Assembly (NCBI GenBank): GCA_902800815.1
Contig: CADCGB010000017.1
Location: 46,520 to 110,519 of the forward strand
Direction of reading: 5' to 3'
Source: Fibrobacter succinogenes
GTDB taxonomy: Bacteria > Fibrobacterota > Fibrobacteria > Fibrobacterales > Fibrobacteraceae
Length of the DNA stretch: 64,000 nt
A program made the translations under genes and the position numbers. Under the pieces are notes generated by a model. It did not search any database and was not told the DNA's origin. It saw only the letters and a program-made list of their open reading frames with translations. Below, piece after piece: positions 7,309 through 42,357 of this stretch (positions are counted from its first letter, which is position 1; each line of letters begins with the position of its first letter).

Positions 7309-7520
7309 GGGGCATATAAACCGGAGTTATTTTCGCAATTTATATGCCCCTCTAAGCCACAATTCAGCACATAGGCTCGCATACAACGTAACAAAGGGCG
7401 TATAAACCGAAGCAAAGAGTCCCTTTTATATGCCCCTATCCTGAAAATCAGATATTTTTTCACACGCAAAACAACAAAAGGGCATATAAACCCGGAGAAA
7501 TGCCGCAATTTATATGCCCC
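7309..7520. repeat. Three ~41-bp imperfect palindromic units (GGGCATATAAA-N18-TTTATATGCCC) at 84-86 bp period
   Basis: Units at 7309-7350, 7396-7435 and 7480-7519; each loop is 18 nt. Confidence 0.85.
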
Positions 7521-31077: not shown

Positions 31078-31102
31078 AATCAAAACTCTTAAAAATCTTC
31101 CT

Positions 31103-31144
31103 GGATCCTTCGACTACGGGCTGCGCCCTCCGCTCAGGATGACA
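31103..31144. repeat. Solo REP-like palindromic element
   Basis: ggatccttcgactacgggctgcgccctccgctcaggatgaca, 39/42 identical to 40464-40505. Confidence 0.9.
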
Positions 31145-31146
31145 CC

Positions 31147-36807: not shown

Positions 36808-38391
36808 ATGACGCCTTTCAAATCATTCCTCAGCATTTTAAGCCTGTTCGTCGTGCTCGGCCTCATGGCATGGCTCTACCCGGCAAGCGGCATCACCATT
36901 GCAGACACTACATTCAGGTTCCCGGCCCTCACGGACATCTTCGAGAAAGAGGACCCCAATGCCGTCGCCGAAGACGACAACGCCGAGACCGACCCGCAGA
37001 AGGCTATCGAGGAAATGATGGCGGCCACGCAGGCGAAGGAACTCGCCGCGTTCTCCGACTCGCTGAACTTCTACGAGGACTTCTTCAAGAACGGGCGCAA
37101 CAGGTTCGACCTGCCGAACAACGACCCCACATGGTTTGACCGTCTGTTCCTGCACCTGGAACTCGCCAAGATGGATTCGAACATCGTGCATATTATGCAC
37201 TACGGCGACTCGCAGCTCGAGGAAGACCGCATATCGTCCACCATCCGCGAAGACCTGCAGAAGGAATTCGGCGGTGGCGGCCCGGGCATGCTCCCCGCAG
37301 TGCTGAACATCCCGTCGCAGACAACGAGCGTGTGGAACAATGGCGACCTCACCCGCTTCATCATGTTCGGTACCGAAGAGGACCGCGCCGACCACAACCG
37401 CTACGGCCCGCTCGCGCAGGTGAGCAAGTTGCAGGGTAGCGCCGTCATCGGCATCAAGAAGCGCGAAGACAAGGATGACAAGTTCACGCACGTGGGCGGC
37501 TACGGCACCATCAAGGTTCTCGCCAGCAGGCGCGGCAACCTGAAGGTTCGCCTCGCCTACGAAGCCACCGTCATCGAAAACGAAGGCACCGACAAGGAAA
37601 AGCGCAAGAAGAAATTCGTGGACGCCCCCGCCCCCACGGACGAAAAGTTCAACAAGCTCCGCGTGTTCACGTGGAAACTCCCCGACACCACGTCTAACGC
37701 GAAGGTGTACCTCTCCGGCAACGCAGAAATCTACTCCGTCTCTGTCGACGGCCCCTACGGTGTCGCAGTCGATAACGTCGCCATGCGCGGCAGTTCGGGC
37801 ACGGTATTCAGCCGCATGGACAAGGAACTCCTCGCCGAATCGTTCAAGGCGATGAACGCCCGCCTTATCATCATGGAATACGGCGGAAACCTGGTCCCGA
37901 GCATCAACAAGAGCAACATCGAGTACAACAAGAACCTCATCGCAAAGCAGATCCAGACCATCCAGAATGCAAACCCCGATGCGGACATCCTGTTCATCGG
38001 CCCCGCCGACATGGCACGCCAGATAGACGGCAAGATGAAGAGCTACCCCGGCCTGTTGCCCACCATCGAGTTCCTCCGCGAAGTCGCCCTCGAGAACGGC
38101 GCCGCCTACTGGGACATGTACCGCGTGATGGGTGGCGAAGGTTCCATGCGCAAGTGGGTCAAGCAGTCCCCGCCGCTCGCCGGAGCAGACTACATCCACT
38201 TCAGCCGCAGGGGTGCCGCCTACATGGGCGAACTCTTCGTCAACGCGCTGCGCATGCATTACGACTACTTCAAGTTCCGCGACAAGCACAAGATCGACGA
38301 CGCGAAGCTGAAGGATATCCAGAAGCTCAAGAAGCCCGCAGAACAGGCTCCGACTGCAGAAACTGCACCACAGGCGGAGGCCGCGCAATGA
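36808..38391 (+). CDS. SGNH/GDSL-family periplasmic O-acetyltransferase/esterase 1
   Basis: N-terminal TM helix; HYGDSQLE, DNVAMRGSSG, EYGGN, DYIHFS. Confidence 0.85.
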   Translation: MTPFKSFLSILSLFVVLGLMAWLYPASGITIADTTFRFPALTDIFEKEDPNAVAEDDNAETDPQKAIEEMMAATQAKELAAFSDSLNFYEDFFKNGRNRFDLPNNDPTWFDRLFLHLELAKMDSNIVHIMHYGDSQLEEDRISSTIREDLQKEFGGGGPGMLPAVLNIPSQTTSVWNNGDLTRFIMFGTEEDRADHNRYGPLAQVSKLQGSAVIGIKKREDKDDKFTHVGGYGTIKVLASRRGNLKVRLAYEATVIENEGTDKEKRKKKFVDAPAPTDEKFNKLRVFTWKLPDTTSNAKVYLSGNAEIYSVSVDGPYGVAVDNVAMRGSSGTVFSRMDKELLAESFKAMNARLIIMEYGGNLVPSINKSNIEYNKNLIAKQIQTIQNANPDADILFIGPADMARQIDGKMKSYPGLLPTIEFLREVALENGAAYWDMYRVMGGEGSMRKWVKQSPPLAGADYIHFSRRGAAYMGELFVNALRMHYDYFKFRDKHKIDDAKLKDIQKLKKPAEQAPTAETAPQAEAAQ

Positions 38392-40124
38392 AAGGACTTT
38401 CGCGCATACTCGGCATCCTGACGTTCGCCATCTCGGCAACTGCGCTTTTCGCAGCACCTCCGGTCTCTACGCCCGCAGGCTACATCGTTGACTTCACCAA
38501 ATACGACTTCATCGATTCTACGCTCAACATCATACAGTTCCCGAGCGGCAAGGAATCGTTCGAGCCGTTCTTCCAGAAGATGGACTCGCTCGTGTTCGAG
38601 AACAAGGGCAAGGTCAACATCCTGCACATCGGCGGTTCGCACATCCAGGCCGACGTCGTATCGGGCCGTATCCGCGAGCACCTCGTGAAAGAATACCCGG
38701 GTGCCTCTGCAGGCCGCGGGTTCGTTTTCCCGTATTCTGCCGCCCGCACCAACACGCCCTCCAGCTACGGCTCGCAGTACAAGGGCATCTGGGACATGAG
38801 CAAGAACGTGCTCCGCGAAGTCAAGAAACCGCTCGGGCTCCTCGGGATTGCCGTCAGCACGTCTGACCCGCGCGCCGAATTCACGCTCCTGCTCGACAAG
38901 TACAACTCCGCTCCGGTCTACGCCGAGACAAAGTTCCGCCTCTTCGGGTACAGCGACAGCAACAACGTCGTCCCCGTACTCGTGGTCGATTCGGTGGATA
39001 TCAAGGGTGTACGCGATTCCGCCACGCAGAGCTACGTGTTCAAGAGCCCCCGCCCGATAGACACGCTCCATTTTGCCTTCCGCTGGTCCGACGCCTCCCT
39101 CCAGGCAAAGGTCGCGCAGTACCTCGTCGATTCGCTTGTACAAGATTCCATCTACCGTGCAAGCCTAGACACGCTTAACGCAGATTCTACCGCTGACAGC
39201 ACCGCGAAGAAGAACGCGCTTCCCGAGAATCAGGAAGCCTCCGCGGATTCCATGTTCCAGGGCAACTGCGACATCATGGACACGACCTGCCTCGAGAAGG
39301 AAGAGCCCAAAAACGACCTGCTCGCCGCATGCCGCGTCTTCCTGGATTCCACCAAGCAGGCCGACTCCACGGCCACGCGTGACACCGCCGCCCGCGATTC
39401 CTCGCTCGCAAGCGATTCCACCCGCACTGCGGATTCTACCGTCATCGCAGACACATTGCAGAAGGCAATCTGCGATTCGCTCATCGCGCTATCCGAAACA
39501 CTCTCCTTCACGCGCCCGCGCTTCACCATGACAGGCGTCATCTCGGAATCCGACTACCCGGGCATCGTCTACACGAACGTGGGCATCAACGGAGCACGCA
39601 TCGCGCACTACTTCGAGGAAACCTGCCCGCTTTTCGAGAAGGAACTCGCCTTCCTCAAGCCCGACCTCGTGATATTTGCAATAGGCATCAACGACGCGAA
39701 CGTCGAGAAATTCGACGACAAGACCTTCCGCAACAACTACGACATCCTCATCGAGCGCATACGGCGCGTGAACCCGAATGTCGCGTTTATTTTCGAGACA
39801 AACAACGACATGTACCGCAAGGTGCGCAAGCGCCGCTACGTGCAGCACCCCGTAGGCGAACAGGCCCGCAAGGCGTTCTTCTCGCTTGCCGAAAAGCACA
39901 AGGCCGGCGTGTGGGACAAGTTCTCCCTGATGGGTGGCCTCGGTTCCATGGCCAAGTGGGAAAAGGCAAGCCTCGCGAAAAAGGACAAGATTCATTTCAA
40001 CATGGCGGGCTACCACCTGCTCGGTGACATGTTCTACAAGGCACTCATCGATGCCTACCAGGAACACATCGCGAACCTCCCTGCCCTCGAACCGACTCCG
40101 AAGAAGGATGTAAAAACAAAATGA
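38388..40124 (+). CDS. SGNH/GDSL-family periplasmic O-acetyltransferase/esterase 2
   Basis: ATG 38388 overlaps the previous stop; HIGGSHIQAD, NVGINGA, AIGINDA, DKIHFN; long low-complexity D/S/T/A insert. Confidence 0.85.
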   Translation: MKGLSRILGILTFAISATALFAAPPVSTPAGYIVDFTKYDFIDSTLNIIQFPSGKESFEPFFQKMDSLVFENKGKVNILHIGGSHIQADVVSGRIREHLVKEYPGASAGRGFVFPYSAARTNTPSSYGSQYKGIWDMSKNVLREVKKPLGLLGIAVSTSDPRAEFTLLLDKYNSAPVYAETKFRLFGYSDSNNVVPVLVVDSVDIKGVRDSATQSYVFKSPRPIDTLHFAFRWSDASLQAKVAQYLVDSLVQDSIYRASLDTLNADSTADSTAKKNALPENQEASADSMFQGNCDIMDTTCLEKEEPKNDLLAACRVFLDSTKQADSTATRDTAARDSSLASDSTRTADSTVIADTLQKAICDSLIALSETLSFTRPRFTMTGVISESDYPGIVYTNVGINGARIAHYFEETCPLFEKELAFLKPDLVIFAIGINDANVEKFDDKTFRNNYDILIERIRRVNPNVAFIFETNNDMYRKVRKRRYVQHPVGEQARKAFFSLAEKHKAGVWDKFSLMGGLGSMAKWEKASLAKKDKIHFNMAGYHLLGDMFYKALIDAYQEHIANLPALEPTPKKDVKTK

Positions 40125-40127
40125 CAG

Positions 40128-40505
40128 TGTCATCCTGAGCGTAGCAACGCCAGTTGCGAAGTCGAAGGATCTAAAAAAAAATGCCAAATAGTTACTACAC
40201 ATACATAATGTCAAATCAGACAAACACTACAATTTATGTAGGTGTAACAAATAATATTGAACGTCGTGCTTTAGAACATATGAGTGGTAGCGGAGCGTCG
40301 TTTACCGCTAGATATAAAATCAACAAACTTGTTTATTTTGAAAGATATACTGAAATTAATGATGCAATACAAAGAGAAAAACAACTAAAAGGTTGGAAAA
40401 GAGAAAAGAAAAACAACTTAATAAATCAAATGAATCCCCAATGGAATGATTTGATGAAAGATTAGATCCTTCGACTACGGGCTACGCCCTTCGCTCAGGA
40501 TGACA
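40128..40505. mobile_element. GIY-YIG cassette bounded by inverted REP-like ends
   Basis: Left end 40128-40173 tgtcatcctgagcg...agtcgaaggatcta; right end 40463-40505 is the inverted equivalent; the interior is much more AT-rich than the flanks. Confidence 0.7.
40181..40465 (+). CDS. Stand-alone GIY-YIG nuclease family protein
   Basis: YYTYIMSN...IYVGVTNNIERRALEH, LVYFE, AIQREKQLKGWKR. Confidence 0.92.
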   Translation: MPNSYYTYIMSNQTNTTIYVGVTNNIERRALEHMSGSGASFTARYKINKLVYFERYTEINDAIQREKQLKGWKREKKNNLINQMNPQWNDLMKD

Positions 40506-40506
40506 T

Positions 40507-42357
40507 ATGCTTGACTACATAATACCTTACCTCACACGCACGTTTGCATTCGACCAGAATAGCCCGCTACTCTTTACGCAGTTCTACTTCTGGGGTTTCT
40601 TCGCGGTCGTATTCGCCGTTTTCTCGCTCGTCCACAGGAAGCTCTTGCTCCGTAACGCATTCCTGTTTGCGACAAGCCTCTTCTTCTACTACAAGACAAG
40701 CGGCAGCTACGTCTGCATTCTCCTCTTCTGCGTGGTCGCGAACTTCTTTATAGGCAAGTGGATCGAGAAGGCCCAGGCGCAGTGGAAAAAGAAATTCCTG
40801 ATGATTATCGTCGTCATCATCGACCTGCTCGTCCTCTGCTACTACAAGTATTCCTACTTCTTCCTCGACGCCCTCTACGACTTTACCGGCATCGAGTTGC
40901 ATGTATACAACTTCTTTGCCGCCGCAAGCAACAAGATGTTCGGCACGCACTCGCTCGTCGATACCATCATATTGCCCGTGGGCATCTCGTTCTTCACGTT
41001 CCAGGCGATGAGCTACTGCATCGATATCTACCGCGGCAAGATCAAGCCCGTAACGAACATCCTCAACTTCGGTTTCTACCTCTCGTTCTTCCCGCAGCTC
41101 GTCGCGGGCCCCATCGTGCGCGCCGACAAATTCGTCCCACAACTCTACAAAAAATACTTCCTCCCGCGCCGCACCTTCGGTATCGCCGTATTCTGGATTT
41201 TGAACGGCCTCGGCAAGAAGATTATCCTAAGCGACTACCTCGCGACAAACTTCGTGGACCGTGTGTTCGACCAGCCTCTGCTCTATACGGGCCTCGAGAA
41301 CCTCATCGCGCTCTTCGCCTACTCCCTGCAGGTCTACGCCGACTTCTCGGGCTATACCGACATCGCCATCGGCGTTGCTCTCCTCATGGGCTTCCGCCTG
41401 CCGCAGAACTTCAATAGCCCCTACAAGGCGCTCTCCCCCACCGAATTCTGGCGCCGTTGGCACATCTCGCTTTCTAGCTGGTGGCGCGACTACCTGTACA
41501 TCCCGCTTGGCGGCAACCGCAACGCGACTCTCGGCACGTTCTTCTGGATGGGTTTCCTGAGCCTTGTGGCCATCATGCTTTCGGGCAGCGTGTGGGTAGC
41601 CGTCGCCCTCATCGCGCTGTTCCTCTACATTTCCATTTACGCGTATTTCAAGCCCGATTCCCGCAAGTTCATCACCACCAACATGAACGCCATGGCCACG
41701 CAAATCGTAGGCGGCTGGTGGCACGGTGCCAGCTGGAACTTCATCATCTGGGGCGGCCTCAACGGCTTTGGCCAGGTGTTCAACAAGATCTGGTGCAAGC
41801 GTAGCCTCACCTTCCGCGCGAGCGCCGCATTCATCTTGTTCGCCGCGAGTGCCATCATCTTCAAGAACTACCACATCGCCATCTTCGCGATTACAGCCGT
41901 CTATTTCGGCGTGCTGTTCTTCGGCATCTACTCCGTGCTCATCTTCCGCCTGTTCAGCCAGAAGACTTACCACAGGCTCTATGTGGCATGGAACGTGACG
42001 CTCACCTTCGTGTTCATCACCTTCACGCGACTCTTCTTCCGCGCAGGCTCGAACCTCGACCCCGCTGAAGCGAACGAAGTCGCCTGGAACACCGCGAAGA
42101 ACATGGTGCAACAGATGGGCACCGCCTGGAAGTGGGATACCCTCGGCACCATCGCCTGGCAGCACATCAACATCATCCTCGTGTTTATCGCGGGCATGCT
42201 CATCCACTGGGTCCCCAAAAAGTGGAAGAGCCGCTACCGCATCGCGTTCGCATCGCAGCCCATTCCGCTGATGGTGCTTTCTACGGCATTCATCATCTTC
42301 ATCATCTACCAGTTCATGAGCGCGGACAGCTGCCCGTTCATCTATTTCCAGTTCTAG
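40507..42357 (+). CDS. MBOAT family O-acyltransferase (AlgI/PatA/DltB-like)
   Basis: LPVGISFFTFQ, SFFPQLVAGPIVRA, YADFSGYTDIAIG, NFNSPY, FWRRWHISLSSW, GWWHGASWNFIIWG. Confidence 0.93.
   Translation: MLDYIIPYLTRTFAFDQNSPLLFTQFYFWGFFAVVFAVFSLVHRKLLLRNAFLFATSLFFYYKTSGSYVCILLFCVVANFFIGKWIEKAQAQWKKKFLMIIVVIIDLLVLCYYKYSYFFLDALYDFTGIELHVYNFFAAASNKMFGTHSLVDTIILPVGISFFTFQAMSYCIDIYRGKIKPVTNILNFGFYLSFFPQLVAGPIVRADKFVPQLYKKYFLPRRTFGIAVFWILNGLGKKIILSDYLATNFVDRVFDQPLLYTGLENLIALFAYSLQVYADFSGYTDIAIGVALLMGFRLPQNFNSPYKALSPTEFWRRWHISLSSWWRDYLYIPLGGNRNATLGTFFWMGFLSLVAIMLSGSVWVAVALIALFLYISIYAYFKPDSRKFITTNMNAMATQIVGGWWHGASWNFIIWGGLNGFGQVFNKIWCKRSLTFRASAAFILFAASAIIFKNYHIAIFAITAVYFGVLFFGIYSVLIFRLFSQKTYHRLYVAWNVTLTFVFITFTRLFFRAGSNLDPAEANEVAWNTAKNMVQQMGTAWKWDTLGTIAWQHINIILVFIAGMLIHWVPKKWKSRYRIAFASQPIPLMVLSTAFIIFIIYQFMSADSCPFIYFQF

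Follow-up and report, generated by a model that had tools for sequence, protein, structure and literature searches.

The feature described here lies in the window, by which we mean the whole stretch of 64,000 nucleotides that was analysed (C17:46520-110519), in a genome of 3.15 Mb and 64 contigs. It consists of an open reading frame for a GIY-YIG protein on the plus strand at 40181-40465 (285 nt, 94 aa), which is situated in the intergenic gap between the genes for an SGNH/GDSL hydrolase (stop codon TGA at 40122-40124) and an MBOAT O-acyltransferase (ATG at 40507), and of two inverted copies of a repeat unit of 43-46 nt, composed of TGTCATCCTGAGCG, a tip and AGTCGAAGGATCTA, which flank this frame. 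The features referred to below are as follows.

31102-31144, minus strand: solo REP, with its tag 2 nt after the TAA of a nucleotidyl-transferase gene; a SpoU methylase gene lies on its other side
38388-40124, plus strand: SGNH/GDSL hydrolase, the upstream host gene (the listed ORF starts at 38154, but the likely true start is the methionine of MKGLSR near 38388)
40128-40173, plus strand: left REP (SRM-type), made up of TGTCATCCTGAGCG, the variable tip hairpin GCAAC/GTTGC and AGTCGAAGGATCTA, with the tag facing outward and starting 3 nt after the SGNH stop
40181-40465, plus strand: ssn-like gene for a 94-aa single-domain GIY-YIG nuclease, with Y8, Y19, R29, H33, E66 and N85 conserved
40463-40505, minus strand: right REP, inverted, with the tag facing outward; its tail TAGATCC provides the stop of the gene, and a single nucleotide separates the repeat from the MBOAT ATG
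40507-42357, plus strand: MBOAT O-acyltransferase, the downstream host gene, given for context

The inverted arrangement of the two repeats is seen in both their outer arms (40128-40144 and 40489-40505, 17 nt) and their inner arms (40157-40174 and 40462-40479, 18 nt), which are 94% complementary in each case, and the right repeat begins with the three bases that form the stop codon of the gene (TAG, 40463-40465). The encoded protein matches the Pfam GIY-YIG family (PF01541) over residues 5-78 with an E value of 1.9e-16, and the GC content of its gene is about 30-31% (local GC 0.31-0.38), compared with 0.54 for the whole genome. Three positions distinguish the solo repeat from the right repeat, and the nucleotidyl-transferase gene beside it shows a match to PF00483 (E=6.5e-16). 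These observations agree with the original prediction, which had described an AT-rich GIY-YIG gene of 94 codons between the two host genes, inverted REP-like ends of which the right one supplies the TAG, a left end beginning 3 nt behind a stop codon, and a solo copy just past the stop of the nucleotidyl-transferase gene. Two further palindromic features of the window may be recorded here. The first, ATGACA-G-TGTCAT at 40119-40133, is made up of the SGNH stop region and the left tag and is not present in the related genome G068; it may be due to chance or may be the remnant of an opposed repeat end. The second comes from an earlier note on the window, viz. three palindromes of fixed geometry at 7309-7520 with periods of about 85 bp.

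The GIY-YIG protein and the Ssn nucleases

In its AlphaFold model, the 94-aa protein is predicted to form one compact domain (pLDDT 88.5) with the order beta-beta-alpha-alpha-beta-alpha-alpha. The solved structures nearest to this model, among a PDB in which no Ssn structure is present, are those of UPF0213 and Slx1, which show the minimal GIY-YIG fold. The UPF0213/YhbQ and Slx1 proteins (PDB 1zg2, 1ywl and 6seh), which are also nearest in sequence among the solved proteins, are similar in that each is a minimal GIY-YIG domain with structured DNA as its substrate; however, they exhibit only 27-30% identity and their two tyrosines are spaced by 10 rather than 11 residues. The residues Y8, Y19 and E66 are invariant across 18 Fibrobacter paralogues, and their spacing of 11 and 47 residues is identical to that of the catalytic residues Y6, Y17 and E64 in the 94-aa SsnA of Neisseria meningitidis. 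The public gene calls in the protein cluster include 85-aa versions, which by length alone fit a start at Met10 and would thus lose Y8; the family alignment is consistent with the 94-aa reading of the gene.

Two other assignments within the GIY-YIG superfamily were considered and rejected. Membership of the UPF0213/YhbQ group (cd10456) is not indicated, as the match to proteins of the BH0048/EF2693 type has an E value of only 2e-6 with about 30% identity and a different Tyr-Tyr spacing. A separate gene of the UPF0213 type is found at C10:112237, with host-like GC content and without flanking repeats, and due to this the two GIY-YIG subfamilies are seen to be distinct in this genome. Similarly, an I-TevI-type homing endonuclease is not indicated, as the protein is 94 aa in length with no second domain and scores 22 bits against TIGR01453, whose cut-off is 56.

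The characteristics of the Ssn proteins are known from recent experimental work (Chenal et al. 2025, PMC11893778). SsnA, which is a single-domain GIY-YIG protein of the group CDD cd10448, binds CGTCATTCCCGCGMAVGCGGGAATCYRG solely as single-stranded DNA and cuts it a few nucleotides upstream, its cleavage requiring the three bases before the palindrome and its binding the C after the palindrome. Three more Ssn homologues cut their own repeats, so that four enzymes were tested in all, and these enzymes do not cleave double-stranded DNA. The repeats (SRMs) were found near 71% of the Ssn homologues, on both sides in 42%, and the NTS-ssnA-NTS layout was called insertion-sequence-like and compared with the REP-associated transposases of the IS200/IS605 type (PMC11893778).

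The Fibrobacter cassette resembles this published system in its 94-aa single-domain GIY-YIG protein with the same Tyr/Tyr/Glu spacing, in the inverted hairpins of the form (C/T)GTCAT-stem-loop-stem-ATCYRG on both sides of the gene, in the scattered gene-less copies that are mostly intergenic, and in the joint variation of nuclease clade and repeat. Between the published NTS (CGTCAT-stem-loop-stem-ATCYRG) and the repeats described here (TGTCAT...ATCTA/ATCCAG), the GTC as well as the 3' C are kept. However, it differs in its host phylum (Fibrobacterota), in the number of copies (20-28 here, compared with hundreds) and in the stem, where the repeat described here has CCT, an internal loop GAGCG/AGTCGA and a hypervariable tip hairpin of 4-6 bp. 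Further, the Fibrobacter cassette is known from its sequence, whereas Ssn activity was measured in the enzymes of Chenal et al. The placement of the protein within the Ssn group (cd10448) is suggested indirectly by relatives, viz. those at L027 and L157, whose proteins show 46-53% identity and are flanked by near-canonical NTS repeats.

The repeat family in the Fibrobacter succinogenes genome

The 13-mer GTCATCCTGAGCG is present in 20 exact copies in the 3.15-Mb genome, where about 0.1 would be expected, and 28 full repeat units were recognised, of which 26 start with TGTCAT, one with CGTCAT and one with AGTCAT. The approximately 28 gene-less repeats are members of the same family as the repeats of the cassette. 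Their constant parts include the tag TGTCAT (mostly preceded by G), a basal stem of 5 bp (ATCCT/AGGAT), the internal loop GAGCG/AGTCGA and a tail that reads C-TA or C-CA. The middle of the repeat, on the other hand, is different in all 28 copies, the longer of which form a stem of 4-6 bp that varies in sequence. Certain tips are found repeatedly (GATGCCGCGAGGCATC in four copies, and also GAACCRAAGGTTC), which indicates that there are sub-lineages among the copies. The predicted single-strand DNA folds of individual repeats range from -4 to -8 kcal/mol, with z no better than -1.3 in comparison to shuffled sequences; the case for a folded structure is therefore based not on fold energy but on the tip stems of 4-6 bp, which differ in sequence between copies. 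No Rfam match was found for the whole window at gathering thresholds, nor for 40090-40540 at E values up to 1, and a scan for terminators and promoters gave nothing exceeding shuffled sequences; because of these negative results, the possibility that the repeats are structured RNAs or terminators is not supported. A run of T residues after the repeat hairpins is likewise absent.

The location of the repeats with respect to genes is strongly biased. The tags of 8 of the 28 units are found 0-12 nt past a co-oriented stop codon, compared with 2% of random intergenic positions (binomial p of about 7e-8, or about 14 times chance), a figure that rests on crude gene calls made in the analysis itself. 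In several cases the tail CTAG of the repeat also serves as the stop of a convergent gene. The idea that these repeats come to lie just after stop codons, which was part of the original prediction along with a proposed count of copies and their stop-codon distances over the whole genome, is supported by this enrichment.

Palindromic repeats with a CGTC tag were earlier defined as a super-family, for which no dedicated transposase was reported (Di Nocera, De Gregorio and Rocco 2013, PMC3733652). The repeats described here belong to this class, and the two are alike in being short, intergenic palindromes with a (C/T)GTC tag at one end, in being sometimes located in frame within repair or helicase genes, and in that different families replace each other at a given site between related species. 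However, while the CGTC REPs (PMC3733652) are without a dedicated enzyme, the repeats in Fibrobacter and those of Chenal et al. flank a GIY-YIG gene. One example of an in-frame REP is found at C13:60757-60799 (L205), within the gene for a 1327-aa DEAH helicase of the HrpA type, between its DEAD and Helicase_C domains; in G068 (L187) this site is occupied by another REP family in the opposite orientation, the position being unchanged.

Two other kinds of short sequence are associated with the REPs. One is a sequence of about 93 nt adjoining a short REP at approximately C14:59085-59180 (L204), which is present in 5 to 12 copies in each of the genomes G061, G068 and G070 and has no Rfam match at E values up to 0.1. 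The other is an element of about 57 nt, TATACGAAACT-hairpin-TTAGTTGAGTTATCC..GTGGAG, that splits REP hairpins in their loop or arm and looks like a miniature element targeting them; the sites where it was seen are as follows.

C1:9145, C2:18818 and C37:8976: copies of the ~57-nt element in this genome's contigs
L007, positions ~1390-1470: ~57-nt element
L010 and L011: ~57-nt element in the flanks
L069 and L073: ~57-nt element

Distribution, pairing and turnover of cassettes and repeats

The arm of the repeat is found in 99 of the 101 Fibrobacter species genomes in 0-84 copies each, and the reversed sequence of the arm, used as a control, is found in none of them. This distribution, the zero count of the control and the 20 copies observed in place of about 0.1 expected place the occurrence of the repeat well beyond chance. 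Homologues of the nuclease are present in 82 of the 101 genomes, with 0-6 per genome, and belong to very different clades. The close homologues (72-100% aa identity) all share the repeat-gene-repeat geometry (20/20 in the genus), and their genes have a GC content of 25-39% compared with 49-59% in the flanks and are located in at least 6 unrelated genomic contexts. In the G081 cassette, both the left and the right tips are the same as those in G015, but this cassette is at a different locus, from which it follows that the whole cassette moves as a unit.

Around the more distant paralogues, stems of other types are found, viz. TTCCGAGCG, CCCTCGCG, TGGCGGC, TTGCGAG, CCCCGG, TCCTCCG and TTCCCGCG. 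When the type of the downstream stem is traced along a maximum-likelihood tree built from 47 proteins, it changes 18 times, the minimum possible number being 17; when the stem labels were shuffled the mean number of changes was 26.4, and none of the 500 shuffles was as low as 18. These results show directly that each of the nuclease clades carries its own repeat stem. With regard to the number of repeats, the median is 27 in genomes with the cognate nuclease clade and 15 in those without it (p=0.0013, with kinship between genomes ignored). However, the repeats are kept, in up to 54 copies, in 18 of the 19 genomes that are without any nuclease homologue. Thus the co-occurrence of this nuclease clade with the repeats, which the original prediction proposed to test, holds insofar as stem type follows the protein tree and the median numbers differ, but it does not extend to a dependence of the repeats on the gene, and the abundance of the repeats is in part unrelated to the presence of the nuclease.

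Empty sites, which the original prediction had suggested looking for, are found in related genomes. At the SGNH-MBOAT junction the cassette is present in nine genomes, while in most other relatives the junction is repeat-free and only 5-34 nt long, and in four genomes it holds a solo repeat of another family (GATCCCCGGCCAAGCCGGGGATGAC). Two genomes, G004 and G082, keep the sequence TAGATGACA at this position, which resembles a right repeat that has lost its interior and retained both ends. In the MBOAT tree, the filled sites are distributed patchily inside one clade. The divergence of the cassette gene is similar to that of its flanks (76-81% versus 72-89% nt identity, and 99% versus 95-97% for G068), which makes an ancient insertion with several later losses at least as likely as repeated insertion. 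G061 has the same solo repeat as that at 31102-31144, with an identical tip, and the repeat is missing in G070, G069, G022, G029 and G005, whose flanking genes are 2-4 nt apart. Its site holds other fillers in G015/G104 and in G068. These comparisons show directly that the cassette moves as a single piece, and that both insertions and deletions of it have occurred at operon junctions.

The fillers at the site orthologous to 31080-31146 are of two kinds. In G015 and G104 (L079/L081) the filler is a TAGT-rich, stop-codon-rich spacer (AGTAGGAAGTAGACAGT...), and TAGT-rich spacers similar to it also occur at the SGNH-MBOAT junction of G013/G063. In G068 (L080), the filler is an AT-rich cassette of 462 nt with inverted ends of the TAGTCAATAGT type and with what seems to be a small ORF on its minus strand.

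The rate at which the repeats change was assessed by comparing 21 repeat sites with those in G068, in which the flanks are about 95% identical and the nuclease is 98% identical at the amino acid level. Eight of these sites are unchanged; at three, the family is kept but the tip is different; four have a different repeat family, one of these being the in-frame site in the HrpA-type helicase; and at the remaining six the repeat is absent. Both of the repeats flanking the cassette show a changed tip relative to G068, while the gene between them is 99% identical. The repeats thus turn over far faster than the DNA around them. At C20:23099 and C21:11676, short tandem GACGAAAGAC/GAAAGAGG repeats are seen in G068 (L188 and L191) in place of the REPs. 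A search of G034, G003, G068 and G084 for near-identical copies of the cassette within one genome revealed none, the copies being 74-89% identical or in tandem, and due to this low identity there is no sign of very recent jumps. Target-site duplications were also not found at the 9 cassette borders inspected, where the inverted repeat is merely one base longer (G...C).

The homologues are also not confined to Fibrobacter. A search with an alignment of 6 sequences identified 80 homologue loci from many phyla, and proteins with 50-60% identity are found in Bacteroidia, Clostridia, Alphaproteobacteria, Chloroflexota, Nitrospirales, Elusimicrobia-like, Planctomycetes-like and Paceibacterota MAGs. 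A tagged hairpin is present on at least one side in 58 of these 80 loci and on both sides in 45. Many of them carry a short form of the repeat, TGTCATCCTGAGCG-NAG-CGAAGGATCTC, which is near-identical to the base of the repeat in the window. This short-form class contains GCGNAGC, which is an unusually stable DNA mini-hairpin. The published SRM pattern HGTCWYN(0-2)YYVSBRHN(0-5)WNVSBRGN(0-2)RNCYNB, in our own implementation, matches only 5 of the 80 loci; it does not match the GAGCG...CGAAGG class of repeats, including the long form in the window, whereas the type-B repeat of Fibrobacter does match it. This pattern is a search aid and not a definition of the SRMs.

Nature of the cassette

Considering these observations together, the 378-bp segment at 40128-40505 is probably a cassette of the Ssn type, in which the minimal nuclease gene is enclosed by two inverted copies of its cognate TGTC hairpin repeat. 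Judging from the four enzymes characterised by Chenal et al. 2025, the protein would recognise the repeat only as single-stranded, hairpin-folded DNA and, like the tested enzymes, would read the GTC that directly precedes the stem on the 5' side and the C that directly follows the stem on the 3' side. The corresponding nick, a few nucleotides 5' of the tag, would fall at both outer ends of the cassette, on opposite strands, and such nicks may start the copying, the gene conversion or the loss of repeats. If they do, nuclease and repeats would form a selfish or half-domesticated partnership.

Such a partnership would work in a manner similar to that of RAYT and REP, but by a different chemistry. 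The likeness to the REP/REPIN-RAYT systems (REPtrons) is seen in the presence of one small nuclease-type gene inside inverted copies of a genome-dispersed repeat, in the co-diversification of enzyme and repeat, and in the survival of the repeats after loss of the enzyme. However, REPtrons have an HUH/Y1 transposase and a GTAG tag, in contrast to the GIY-YIG protein and the TGTC tag in Fibrobacter, and strand-transfer chemistry with a covalent intermediate, unlike in REPtrons, is not expected for the GIY-YIG cassette. The cassette is also not itself a REPtron, as no Y1 transposase (PF01797) is found in this genome and the Y1 genes inspected in its relatives are not flanked by TGTC repeats. Genes for Y1 transposases of the IS200/IS605 type are present in 41 of the 101 Fibrobacter genomes, and the four loci that were inspected (L172-L175, in G006, G009, G070 and G002) have unrelated hairpin ends, with neither GTCATCC nor a TGTC-tagged REP nearby; at L172-L174 hairpins of the AACCACCAGCTAGGCTGGTGGTT type are present at both ends, and those at L175 are different.

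The original prediction had interpreted the locus as a selfish unit in which the GIY-YIG nuclease mobilises or maintains this family of repeats. The specific pairing of nuclease and repeat, the movement of the unit between contexts and the existence of empty sites all favour the first part of this proposal. Its second part, the mobilisation or maintenance of the repeats, is not favoured by their survival in nearly all nuclease-free genomes, and because the repeats persist without the nuclease and neither near-identical copies nor target-site duplications are seen, a driving role of the nuclease in the spread of the repeats can be put forward only conditionally.

The foremost alternative, which we regard as possible although rather unlikely, is that the nuclease and the repeats are a pair domesticated by the host, in which the nuclease would cut incoming or exposed single-stranded DNA bearing the repeats, and in this manner modulate transformation or recombination near repeat-marked genes, while the repeats would spread otherwise, by recombination or replication slippage. 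This possibility partly overlaps with the partnership preferred here, because the enzymology is the same in both and the purpose alone differs. It is in accordance with the sole experimentally shown role of an Ssn/NTS pair, which is that in Neisseria (PMC11893778). Further, the similar divergence of the SGNH-MBOAT cassette and its flanks indicates that it is long-resident, no identical cassette copies were found within a genome, and the repeats persist in genomes lacking the gene. However, a gene serving the host would not readily account for its patchy presence in very different clades (82/101 genomes, 0-6 copies) or for the strong AT shift relative to the flanks, and the many contexts together with the 50-60% identity in distant phyla are the behaviour of a horizontally moving element; moreover, natural competence is not established for Fibrobacter.

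A stronger form of the selfish reading is doubtful in our view, viz. that the gene and its two repeats together make up a fully autonomous transposon of less than 400 bp, whose sole enzyme, the GIY-YIG single-strand nuclease, also mobilises or converts the gene-less repeats. If this were true, the Ssn nucleases would be the long-missing enzymes of the CGTC/TGTC REPs and a new class of prokaryotic transposases, and the hypervariability of the tips would be a side effect of the nicking and repair of hairpins.

It is also quite improbable that the nuclease is an invader similar to homing endonucleases, whose gene would enter repeats already present when these are cut and repaired, the repeats being its targets and not its cargo. 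Many GIY-YIG nucleases are indeed homing enzymes, the cassette is invariably found within repeat sequence, and where some species have the cassette at a junction, others have a solo repeat of a different family there. However, the gene does not lie inside one split repeat but between two complete repeats with different tips, both of which go along with it to new contexts; in addition, the protein is without a DNA-binding domain of the I-TevI type, and the tested Ssn enzymes are inactive on double-stranded DNA (PMC11893778).

Lastly, the suggestion that a GIY-YIG gene has come to lie by accident between RAYT-driven REPs, or between simple terminator or stabiliser hairpins, could draw on the link of REPs to Y1 (RAYT) transposases elsewhere in bacteria and on the Y1 genes in 41/101 Fibrobacter genomes, but it is largely refuted and only very remotely plausible, as this genome lacks a Y1 gene and the Y1 genes of four relatives have unrelated ends without GTCATCC, the tag is TGTC and not GTAG, the geometry is fixed in all 20 close homologues with the stem type following the protein tree, and the hairpins have neither a following T-run nor an Rfam match.

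Within the Ssn-type partnership that we prefer, the Fibrobacter cassette is a further example of the Ssn/SRM pairing already published in 2025 (PMC11893778), and as Chenal et al. described both this family of enzymes and its association with flanking repeats, neither the basic finding nor the analogy with insertion sequences and RAYTs is new. What the present results add to that work is a variant of the repeat and a record, for Fibrobacter, of the gain and loss of cassettes, of their mobility as a unit and of the co-diversification of nuclease and repeat. With 101 species genomes, several clades with their own stems, clear filled and empty sites and a rapid turnover between close species, Fibrobacter provides a good natural data set for the questions of whether these nucleases spread repeats and what role they have outside Neisseria. 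The constant base and free tip of the repeat also suggest which parts of it the enzyme reads, which would be useful for the programmable cutters of single-stranded DNA that have been proposed. Finally, although this is speculation, a resident nuclease acting on single-stranded DNA might bear on the poor transformability of Fibrobacter succinogenes.
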